IMG/VR virus record: IMGVR_UViG_2690316028_000011
Length of the DNA stretch: 13,352 bases
Direction: 5' to 3' (one strand)
Origin: a virus
Taxonomy: Duplodnaviria > Heunggongvirae > Uroviricota > Caudoviricetes
Below are positions 191 through 2,311 of the stretch, piece by piece. Below the pieces are notes generated by a model. That model did not search any database, had not been told where the DNA came from, and worked only from the letters and a program-made list of their open reading frames with translations. Made by a program: the position numbers and the translations under genes. Positions within the stretch are counted from its first letter, which is position 1. Every line of letters begins with the position of its first letter.

Positions 191-406
191 ATGAAATCCA
201 TGGATAAGTTAACAACGGGCATCGCCTACAGCACCTCTGCAGGCAGTGCTGGCTACTGGTTTTTACAGTTGCTCGATAAAGTCACGCCCTCACAGTGGGC
301 GGCAATAGGTGTATTGGGTAGTCTGGTATTTGGCATGCTGACGTATCTGACAAACCTTTATTTCAAGATTAAAGAAGACAGGCGTAAGGTTGCGAGAAGA
401 GAGTAA
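191..406 (+). CDS. essQ: Phage-21-type class II holin (pinholin) with dual-start motif M-K-S-M
   Basis: 71-aa product [25 protein letters not shown]...[17 protein letters not shown] matches the S21/EssQ pinholin pattern with two predicted TM segments. Strong SD GGAGGTGAGG lies just upstream of the ATG at 191. The six-frame ORF (107..406) extends upstream, but the RBS supports 191. Confidence 0.85.
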
Positions 407-410
407 TCCA

Positions 411-962
411 ATGACTCAAGACTATGAACTGGTTGTGAAAGGAGTTCGCAATTTTGAGAATAAAGTGGCGGTAACTGTAGCCTTACGGGACAAAAAACAC
501 TTTGACGGTGAAATTTTTGACCTGGACATCTCGCTGGACCGTGTTGAAGGTGCCGCGCTGGAGTTTTATGAGGCAGCAGCCAGAAGGAGCATCAGACAGG
601 TCTTCCTGGATGTTGCTGCCGGGTTATGTGAAGGGGATGAGCAGTCGTCGGAAAAGCGCCCCATAATTTTAGAGGCGCAGAATGTGTGGATAACCTACAA
701 AGGAAAGCTACCGGGAAGAATTACTGGTTCTCTGAAGACGCCACCGACGGCATTGCGGTCAGAAAAAGATGATATTGAATCGCCCATTGAAAAACTGGAG
801 GGCAGCGTCGCTGATCTGAATAAAAAATTGTCGGTGCTGATTCCTTCTGAAGATGAAAAAAAACGCCGCGATGAGCAGTTTGCGGCGTTTTACGATTATT
901 GCATTGAAGTTACTCGCAGGAATTTTGTGAAGATTTTTGAGGAGGGTAAATCTCTTCAGTAA
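411..962 (+). CDS. Uncharacterised acidic protein (183 aa) inserted between holin and endolysin
   Basis: ORF 390..962 opens with TTG; the first ATG is at 411, preceded by AGAGAG and immediately after the holin stop. Composition looks like normal coding sequence. No family recognised. Confidence 0.5.
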   Translation: MTQDYELVVKGVRNFENKVAVTVALRDKKHFDGEIFDLDISLDRVEGAALEFYEAAARRSIRQVFLDVAAGLCEGDEQSSEKRPIILEAQNVWITYKGKLPGRITGSLKTPPTALRSEKDDIESPIEKLEGSVADLNKKLSVLIPSEDEKKRRDEQFAAFYDYCIEVTRRNFVKIFEEGKSLQ

Positions 963-1170
963 GCTTATTGGCGGACGCTGCAATTAATTCAGGAAGGTCC
1001 GCAAGGTCATCTGTCAGTGGATATGATGAAAAATCGGCGGCAGTTCTGTTAAGAAGCGCTTTAACTAATTCCTTTTCCTTCTCCGGCAACAAGTTGATTA
1101 GAGCTACGACTGCTTGCCTGAGTGCGATTAAATCAGCAAAAGTTTGTTTTGGTAGATTTGTGTAATCCAT
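910..1170 (-). CDS. Uncharacterised small protein (86 aa), convergent with the preceding ORF
   Basis: ATG at 1170 on the minus strand is preceded by GAGG about 7 nt upstream. Its 3' end overlaps the 411..962 ORF by 53 bp. This position corresponds to where ydfR sits in K-12 Qin, but I cannot confirm identity. Confidence 0.45.
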   Translation of the reverse strand: MDYTNLPKQTFADLIALRQAVVALINLLPEKEKELVKALLNRTAADFSSYPLTDDLADLPELIAASANKLTEEIYPPQKSSQNSCE

Positions 1171-1283
1171 AGTCGCCTCTGTGTTTATCAGATTGACATC
1201 CTCCTCCCGCCAGTGCCCATCACTGGTGAGGTAAGATTTAACATATCCGGGGATTTGAAGCCGATAAATCCTGATAAATATCC

Positions 1284-1817
1284 ATGAACGTAAAAATCAG
1301 ATACAGCCTGTCGGCCGCTGTTCTGGCACTGATTGCCGCCAGTGCTCCTGCCCCTGACATTCTCGATCAGTTTCTGGATGAAAAAGAGGGGAATCACACC
1401 ACTGCATACCGCGATGGCTCCGGCATATGGACCATCTGTCGGGGAGCAACGATGGTGGACGGTAAACCTGTTATTCCGGGAATGAAACTGTCGAAGGAAA
1501 AATGCGCCCAGGTTAACGCCATTGAGCGGGATAAGGCGCTGGCATGGGTGGAGCGCAATATAAAAGTTCCACTGACCGAGCCACAGAAAGCCGGTATCGC
1601 GTCATTCTGTCCCTATAACATTGGCCCTGGTAAGTGTTTTCCGTCGACGTTTTATAAGCGGCTTAATGCCGGTGATCGTAAAGGCGCATGCGAGGCGATT
1701 CGCTGGTGGATAAAGGACGGTGGACGTGATTGCCGCATTCGTTCAAATAATTGTTACGGTCAGGTTATTCGTCGTGACCAGGAGAGTGCATTAACCTGCT
1801 GGGGGATAGAACAGTGA
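1284..1817 (+). CDS. rrrQ: Endolysin, T4-lysozyme family, with an N-terminal SAR (signal-anchor-release)-like segment
   Basis: 177-aa product. N-terminal Ala/Ser-rich weakly hydrophobic stretch [16 protein letters not shown]. Catalytic E-x8-D-x5-T spacing in [16 protein letters not shown]. Matches RrrQ-type prophage lysozymes. Confidence 0.9.
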
Positions 1818-2311
1818 ATCAGATATTCACGGTGATTTTGCTCGTGTTGGTAGGATTTGTCGTAGGTAATGTCTGGAGCGACAGAGGATGGCAAAAAAAA
1901 TGGGCGGAGCGTGATGCTGCCGAATTATCTCAAGAGGTAAATGTCCAATTTGCTGCTCGAATAATTGAACAGGGGCGAACTATATCCCGTGATGAGGCTG
2001 TTAAAGATGCACAACAGAAAGCCGCTGAAATTTCTGCCAGGGCTGCTGATCTGTCTGATAGTGTTAACCAGCTGCGTGCCGAAGCAACAAAATATGCCAT
2101 ACGCCTTGACGCAGCGCAGCATACCGCAAATCTTGCCGCTGCCGTCAGAGGCAAAACAACCAAAGCCGCCGAAGGAATGCTCACCAACATGCTCGGAGAT
2201 ATTGCAGCAGAAGCTCAGCTTTATGCTGAAATTGCTGACAAACGCTACATCGCAGGAGTGACTTGTCAACGGATTTATGAATCTTTAAGAGATAAAAAAT
2301 ATCAGATGTAG
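1814..2311 (+). CDS. rzpQ: Inner-membrane spanin (Rz-like i-spanin)
   Basis: 165-aa product with N-terminal TM helix [18 protein letters not shown] and an Ala/Glu/Gln-rich coiled-coil-like periplasmic part. GTG start overlaps the endolysin TGA stop (GTGA at 1814-1817). Confidence 0.85.
2007..2261 (+). CDS. rzoQ: Outer-membrane lipoprotein spanin (Rz1-like o-spanin) embedded out of frame within rzpQ
   Basis: 84-aa product [23 protein letters not shown]... with lipobox L-T-S-C and a proline-rich mature region. Lies entirely inside rzpQ in the +1 frame, the hallmark Rz/Rz1 arrangement. Confidence 0.7.

Follow-up and report, generated by a model that had tools for sequence, protein, structure and literature searches.

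A predicted pinholin, signal-arrest-release-type endolysin, and embedded spanin lysis module in a Qin-type lambdoid prophage of Escherichia coli

The 13,352-nucleotide (nt) stretch of viral DNA analyzed here over its whole length (IMG/VR record IMGVR_UViG_2690316028_000011, Caudoviricetes; hereafter, the window) carries at positions 191 to 2311 the four lysis genes essQ, rrrQ, rzpQ, and rzoQ and is, judged by its gene order and integration site, a Qin-type lambdoid prophage integrated in ydfJ of Escherichia coli. We consider it highly probable that these genes form the late-operon lysis module of the prophage and that they would act, by homology to phages 21 and 933W, through a pinholin, a signal-arrest-release (SAR) endolysin, and a pair of spanins. 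An initial annotation, made from the letters alone, had described just such a complete system retained in a defective prophage. Matches to protein families, alignment at the level of residues, and comparisons to K-12 Qin and deposited phage genomes bear out an intact set of pinholin, SAR-type endolysin, and embedded Rz/Rz1-type spanins in a defective lambdoid prophage; each sequence feature that the annotation named is present where it had been placed, and the lysis genes are intact as claimed, being open throughout and equal in length to essQ, rrrQ, rzpQ, and rzoQ of K-12 Qin. The four genes are all present but are not contiguous, as two further open reading frames (ORFs) between holin and endolysin had been overlooked. 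The module itself is ordinary and already known, having been named and annotated in thousands of genomes.

The holin gene, essQ, encodes a protein that scores 117.1 bits (cutoff, 26 bits; E = 3e-34) against the Pfam family PF04971, "Bacteriophage P21 holin S," covering 63 of the 64 profile positions. Hydropathy analysis gives two transmembrane segments, as expected of a pinholin, of which the first (residues 8 to 27, rich in Gly, Ala, and Ser) is weakly hydrophobic and the second spans residues 36 to 58 (best window, Kyte-Doolittle 1.9), followed by a charged C-terminal tail. Residues G40, S44, and G48, which matter in the phage 21 holin family, are kept. The dual-start motif recognized earlier, M1-K2-S3-M4, reads at 191 to 202 as in S21, its second start (Met4) being the ATG at 200, and a Shine-Dalgarno sequence, GGAGGTGAGG, lies ahead of the gene at 180 to 189; the predicted products are 71 (from Met1) and 68 (from Met4) residues long. 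In phage 21, the double start of the MKSM motif has been described to yield the antiholin S21 71 and the pinholin S21 68, the latter forming ~2-nm heptameric channels that depolarize the membrane without releasing a cytoplasmic endolysin. EssQ is identical to K-12 EssQ at 63 of 71 residues (89%), to EssD of the DLP12 prophage at 65 of 71, to its counterparts in phages 2H10 and D2 at 93%, and to that in phage 434 at 91.5%. An RNA structure governing the double start was considered and rejected: the fold of 150 to 225 pairs the Shine-Dalgarno sequence and both AUG codons and is no better than that of shuffled sequences (z = -1.26).

The endolysin gene, rrrQ, encodes a T4-type lysozyme in which the E-x8-D-x5-T spacing proposed by the initial annotation can be read directly as E35-x8-D44-x5-T50. 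In HMMER alignments these residues fall on E35, D44, and T50 of phage 21 R (PDB 3HDE and 3HDF; E, ~4e-16 to 5e-16), and RrrQ was also aligned to RrrD (4ZPU). The N-terminal SAR-like hydrophobic segment is present as well, at residues 7 to 24, a run of 18 uncharged residues that is weakly hydrophobic and contains Ala or Ser at 10 of its 18 positions. RrrQ is identical to K-12 RrrQ at 165 of 177 residues (93%), to the 2H10 endolysin at 177 of 177, and to R of phage 933W at 159 of 177 (90%). The last of these has been listed as a SAR endolysin by the Young laboratory, and Shiga toxin phages have been described as combining a pinholin, a SAR endolysin, and embedded Rz/Rz1, with their R proteins predicted to be SAR endolysins. 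An assignment of RrrQ to the SAR-type endolysins is thus supported by its 90% identity to 933W R and by its composition.

The inner-membrane spanin gene, rzpQ, starts with a GTG that overlaps the stop codon of rrrQ (GTGA). RzpQ matches DUF2514 (E = 2e-38) and the PHROG family phrog_312, "Rz-like spanin" (E = 3e-58), carries a predicted transmembrane helix at residues 4 to 20 (Kyte-Doolittle 2.7; Hessa sum, -1.3), as expected of an inner-membrane spanin, and is identical to K-12 RzpQ at 149 of 165 residues (90%) and to the 2H10 protein at 165 of 165. The outer-membrane partner, rzoQ, had been placed out of frame inside rzpQ with an LTSC lipobox, and it does lie there, in the +1 frame, with the lipobox at L20-T21-S22-C23 and a GAGG motif 9 nt upstream of its ATG; RzoQ is identical to K-12 RzoQ, which has the same lipobox, at 80 of 84 residues (95%). 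The residue at +2 is Val and not Asp, and in lipoproteins it is this residue, Asp or not, that decides sorting to the outer membrane. The lipobox fits the consensus [LVI][ASTVI][GAS]C given in the spanin literature, and the gene spans 0.39 to 0.90 of the length (L) of rzpQ, the position of an embedded spanin gene, such genes usually lying from ~0.4-0.5 L to 0.9-1 L of the inner-membrane spanin gene. Cysteines at position 151 of RzpQ and positions 58 and 62 of mature RzoQ are candidate sites for intermolecular disulfides, whose role in spanins has been discussed in the literature. We also noticed that rzoQ is annotated in K-12 and is missing from the RefSeq records of the near-identical E. coli strains H8 and 027_SK3, an omission typical of gene callers.

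Taken as a whole, the cassette is found nearly unchanged in phages. Window positions 162 to 2600 share 98% DNA identity with the lysis regions of 2H10 and PhiR63_1, lambdoid phages with genomes deposited as complete (the literature, too, counts 2H10 among the lambdoid phages), and RrrQ, RzpQ, and RzoQ are 100% identical to the proteins of both. All six exact protein sequences encoded in the region are present in public collections, those of EssQ, the 86-residue antisense ORF, RrrQ, and RzpQ each on at least 1,000 contigs. No inactivating change is seen in the catalytic triad or in the lipobox, the former aligning with that of phage 21 R and the latter being unchanged from K-12 RzoQ. The ratio of nonsynonymous to synonymous substitution rates (dN/dS) comes to 0.08 against K-12 for essQ and rrrQ alike, and this divergence from K-12 probably arose within the phage gene pool. 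The genetic evidence is, at the level of sequence, favorable to a capacity for lysis.

From the identity of the genes, their intact ORFs, the conserved residues, and the identity to deposited phage genes, we infer how the cassette would be expressed, how its products would lie in the membranes, and how lysis would follow. A Q antiterminator encoded upstream would let RNA polymerase that had started at pR' pass the intervening terminators, including a hairpin at 69 to 100 of the window, and transcribe essQ, the ydfR-like gene that follows it, rrrQ, and rzpQ/rzoQ. From essQ would be made a 71-residue antiholin, starting at Met1 and carrying the extra Lys2, and a 68-residue pinholin, starting at Met4. 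RrrQ would be exported by the Sec system, and the weakly hydrophobic segment at its N terminus would hold it, inactive, in the inner membrane until triggering of the pinholin opened small channels that collapse the proton-motive force, whereupon the enzyme would leave the membrane, refold, and cut murein with E35, D44, and T50. RzpQ in the inner membrane and the lipoprotein RzoQ in the outer membrane would assemble into a complex that bridges the periplasm and would then disrupt the outer membrane.

The hairpin in front of essQ had been described as a tR'-like terminator at 70 to 100 before the cassette. A stem-loop followed by a T tract is indeed there (TTTTTCTTTTT, running to base 100), but its position is not that of tR', which lies directly downstream of pR'/qut and beside Q. 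We do not regard the element as tR', because (i) homology to phage lysis modules starts only at base 162, (ii) in strain H8, whose sequence is 99.9% identical, a helix-turn-helix gene has its stop codon 69 nt ahead of the hairpin, and (iii) in H8, ~3.1 kb lie between the end of the Q gene (125 residues), upstream, and essQ, a stretch that holds blc, a ybgA-like gene, and the helix-turn-helix regulator. Most likely, transcription of this upstream accessory gene ends at the hairpin, which Q-modified polymerase passes. A stronger terminator candidate, a 9-bp hairpin with a T tract, is found at 9147 to 9170 of H8 L001, ~100 nt after Q, along with a candidate pR'-like promoter at 9020 to 9049, directly after Q; on its sequence and position, this hairpin makes a more plausible tR' than the window hairpin in this family of prophages. 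The initial annotation had asked whether Q and pR' lie upstream, outside the window; in near-identical strains a Q gene is found upstream, and H8 has a pR'-like candidate.

Several observations weigh against the view that this copy works as a phage 21-like lysis module: (i) the expected position of Q and pR' lies upstream, beyond the sequence of the window; (ii) the exact EssQ allele, with S14 and M49, was not found in the phage collection, where its best match is 93% identical; (iii) no Shine-Dalgarno sequence stands in the 20 nt before the rrrQ ATG; (iv) 877 nt, including the antisense ORF, separate rrrQ from the holin gene, although deposited phage genomes are arranged alike; and (v) the uncharged N-terminal stretch of RrrQ, at 18 residues, is shorter than the ~20-residue SAR region of RrrD and could, by sequence, be a cleavable signal peptide. 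The first three of these, together with the IS1 and IS3 insertions that lie between Q and essQ in relatives, would be compatible with a module that looks intact and is dead, that is, one whose ORFs are open and which brings about no lysis here, be it due to a Q and pR' that are missing or separated, a holin allele that does not trigger, or poor translation of rrrQ. We hold this to be unlikely. Phages 2H10 and PhiR63_1 have R, Rz, and Rz1 proteins identical to those encoded here, and the leader of rrrQ matches too, the spacer at 1171 to 1283 being identical in PhiR63_1 and different by one base in 2H10. The holin differs from those of the same two phages at 5 of 71 residues. Three of these, S19, Y22, and F24, are as in DLP12 EssD; the unusual ones are residues 14 and 49 alone, where homologues also vary among themselves (position 14 being G, S, or T and position 49, L or M), and the exact allele, as noted, is carried by at least 1,000 contigs.

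The fifth point bears on how RrrQ would be held in check. Export by an ordinary cleavable signal peptide in place of a SAR anchor, with a control unlike that of phage 21 R, is suggested by the short hydrophobic core, by a layout resembling a signal peptide (MNVKIR, 13 residues, and SAPAP), and by summed Hessa-scale values of +3.3 to +5.6 kcal/mol, compared with +0.15 to +0.8 kcal/mol for the SAR region of RrrD (and -1.3 for the RzpQ anchor). On the other hand, each of the two A-x-A sites in RrrQ precedes a Pro (ASA|P and APA|P), and the ASAP sequence is kept in K-12 RrrQ and 933W R. A Pro at +1 blocks cleavage by leader peptidase, and its presence after both sites therefore argues against signal cleavage. 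Moreover, the channels of the paired pinholin cannot pass a folded enzyme, pinholins typically go with SAR endolysins, and the 90%-identical 933W R has been catalogued as one. We thus find a cleavable signal quite improbable, and a SAR-type anchor remains our preferred assignment for RrrQ.

The intactness of a late-operon lysis module within a defective prophage does not need a special explanation, because the near-complete prophage of strain H8 holds the same cassette, diverged by at most ~0.1%. For DLP12, it has been reported that an intact S-R-Rz/Rz1 module persists in a defective lambdoid prophage and is even expressed. An internal promoter that would drive the cassette without Q was considered and rejected, as no sigma-70-like promoter was predicted on the + strand in 1 to 2800. 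Most likely, the resident cassette is silent passenger DNA in which decay has not yet begun to show. A domesticated cassette, kept by host selection for uses such as outer-membrane vesicle production, cell wall maintenance, biofilm formation, or altruistic lysis (a proposal made before for the DLP12 module), would agree with the reported conservation and transcription of the K-12 DLP12 S-R-Rz/Rz1 module and its link to vesicle production, with the retention of the cassette in several deletion variants at ydfJ, and with the low dN/dS, but is very improbable, since (i) the low dN/dS was measured on alleles that also circulate in deposited phages and can reflect selection there, (ii) the 99.9% identity to a near-complete prophage copy leaves little time for decay, (iii) IS1 is inserted inside the region in some genomes (H24 and H25), (iv) the + strand promoter prediction just given was negative, and (v) the K-12 ydfR gene cluster has been reported to be unexpressed under standard growth conditions.

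Between holin and endolysin, the first overlooked ORF, an accessory gene of the late operon, encodes a protein of the YdfR family (DUF1327) that has a C-terminal extension, matches PF07041 over residues 1 to 112, and is identical to gp52 of 2H10 at 179 of 183 residues. In the RefSeq records of near-identical strains, only 411 to 746 is called for this gene, which is flagged as a pseudogene; the flag is probably wrong, because the match to phrog_2091 covers the whole length of the ORF and both 2H10 and PhiR63_1 annotate it at full length. K-12 YdfR has recently been reported to bind the N-terminal domain of RNase E through its residues 1 to 72; over the first 69 residues, the window protein is identical to K-12 YdfR at 60 (87%). 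The second ORF encodes a putative acidic protein of 86 residues, lies convergent with the ydfR-like gene, and overlaps its 3' end. Phages PhiR63_1, 2H10, and PhiR5_1 carry it as well; its dN/dS against PhiR5_1 is 0.67, a value that stems from just 13 differences, and it has no Pfam or PADLOC match. A reading of the inserted ORFs as a defense system was rejected, none of the five proteins tested having a PADLOC match. Both ORFs occupy this place between holin and endolysin here and, again, in several lambdoid phages that have been deposited. They may be more than passive cargo and could conceivably serve as an accessory layer of control over the lysis operon, an idea that we put forward as a long shot; for example, the YdfR-family protein might act on RNase E and in this way stabilize late and lysis transcripts or set their timing, and expression of the endolysin and spanins in the lysogen might be dampened by the antisense gene. 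Separately, the 113-nt spacer ahead of rrrQ contains a palindrome, CCAGTG-CCCAT-CACTGG, at ~1211 to 1227.

The features of the window are collected in Table 1. The order cspI, ynfN, gnsB, tfa, pinQ, ydfK, and truncated ydfJ is that of K-12 Qin and of strain 027_SK3, and integration in ydfJ together with the order pinQ-tfaQ-...-cspI-rzpQ-rrrQ-essQ places the element among Qin prophages. Strain H8 carries a prophage at the identical ydfJ site, with 2 mismatches to the window over positions 1 to 2600 (99.9% identity); this prophage is near-complete: its set of lambda-like head and tail genes is full, only gpJ is frameshifted, and one IS3 is inserted. The window is no simple deletion derivative of it, a derivation that is ruled out by packaging genes at 4455 to 5914 that are unrelated to those of H8, and because of these genes the element is, by its gene content, a mosaic. 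Its exact architecture was not found in any complete RefSeq E. coli genome; the deletion variants at ydfJ (the window, 027_SK3, and K-12) all keep the lysis cassette.

Table 1. Features located in the 13,352-nt window
Feature	Position(s)	Strand	Size or basis
Intrinsic-terminator-like hairpin	Stem-loop, 69-90; T tract, 91-100	+	7 bp, 5 G-C; -11.3 kcal/mol
essQ, phage-21-family class II holin (predicted pinholin)	191-406	+	71 residues; PF04971, PHROG holin families
YdfR-family (DUF1327) gene	411-962	+	183 residues; PF07041, E = 3e-42; phrog_2091, 1-183 of 183
Antisense acidic ORF	910-1170	-	86 residues; phrog_2572, 1-86 of 86, E = 4e-53
rrrQ, T4-type (GH24) lysozyme endolysin	1284-1817	+	177 residues; PF00959, E = 3e-24
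rzpQ, inner-membrane spanin (Rz equivalent)	1814-2311	+	165 residues; DUF2514, PHROG 312
rzoQ, outer-membrane lipoprotein spanin (Rz1 equivalent)	2007-2261	+	84 residues; phrog_11621 "Rz-like spanin," E = 2e-8
cspI-like cold-shock gene (coding sequence)	2672-2887	+	
DUF1441 small-terminase-like gene	4790-5284		
terL, truncated N-terminal part	5284-5988		~223 codons
Tail gene I C terminus, joined to terL remnant	5921-6433		
Chimera of J N terminus and side-tail-fiber C terminus	6494-9469		991 residues
tfa, tail-fiber assembly gene	9469-10044		
pinQ	10142-10732	-	
Truncated ydfJ	12069-13352		End of window

The claim that the prophage lacks morphogenesis genes was essentially right, in that they are mostly deleted, but remnants persist in the form of the terminase genes, the chimera of I, J, and tail fiber, and tfa; the region at 4790 to 9469 is a scar of prophage decay. 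As for structured RNA, a search of 1 to 2500 gave no Rfam match at the gathering threshold. Farther along, an Rfam cspA thermoregulator match (2517 to 2933, + strand, 110 bits) spans the leader and coding region of the cspI-like gene, and a full-length IS009 match (9812 to 10010, + strand, 221 bits) lies inside tfa. Around pinQ, we found no convincing inverted repeats that would delimit an adjoining invertible segment.

To conclude, the module follows a textbook pinholin/SAR-endolysin/spanin pathway and matters little beyond its correct annotation, for which the analysis yields three by-products: rzoQ has been missed by RefSeq, the 183-residue ydfR-like gene is probably misflagged, and the hairpin before essQ should not be labeled tR'. 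Among known systems, K-12 Qin (essQ, b1556; ydfR, b1555; rrrQ, b1554; rzpQ, b1553; rzoQ, b4689) is alike in its ydfJ site, lysis gene order, and ORF lengths and shares the flanking genes cspI, ynfN, gnsB, tfaQ, pinQ, and ydfK. It differs in having a 103-residue YdfR whose stop codon overlaps the rrrQ start, where the window has a 183-residue YdfR-family protein, an antisense ORF of 86 residues, and a 113-nt gap, and in having cspB, cspF, and a 250-residue QuuQ upstream, where relatives of the window have blc, the ybgA-like gene, the helix-turn-helix gene, and a 125-residue Q. The phages 2H10 and PhiR63_1 have the same six ORFs as the window, the ydfR-like gene and the antisense ORF included, but differ upstream of base 162, with csp genes in place of the helix-turn-helix gene and the terminator.

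The paradigm for a pinholin paired with a SAR endolysin is provided by S21, R21, Rz, and Rz1 of phage 21 and their DLP12 copy, essD, rrrD, rzpD, and rzoD: EssD is 92% identical to the holin of the window, which keeps the MKSM double start, the endolysin shares the fold family and the E35/D44/T50 triad, and the spanin pair is likewise embedded. In contrast, the endolysin of the window is only ~31% identical (59 of 188 aligned columns), has a shorter and different N-terminal hydrophobic segment, and contains eight cysteines, and its spanins belong to an unrelated family (DUF2514; 42 of 190 aligned columns identical to RzpD), the outer-membrane spanin having 84 residues, as against 60. In phage 933W, S is directly followed by R, with no ydfR-like gene between them, and then by ant and by a lambda-type Rz/Rz1 instead of DUF2514. 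Its proteins are nonetheless close, R being 90% identical (159 of 177) and S being 77% identical (55 of 71) to those of the window, and, as in the relatives of the window, its Q/pR' and S are separated by several terminators and by accessory genes that run to kilobases; given this similar layout, Q-modified polymerase would have to read through the hairpin of the window. The likeness between the two systems has been recorded from the other side as well, as the 933W genome record calls its own S and R "similar to ... Qin."

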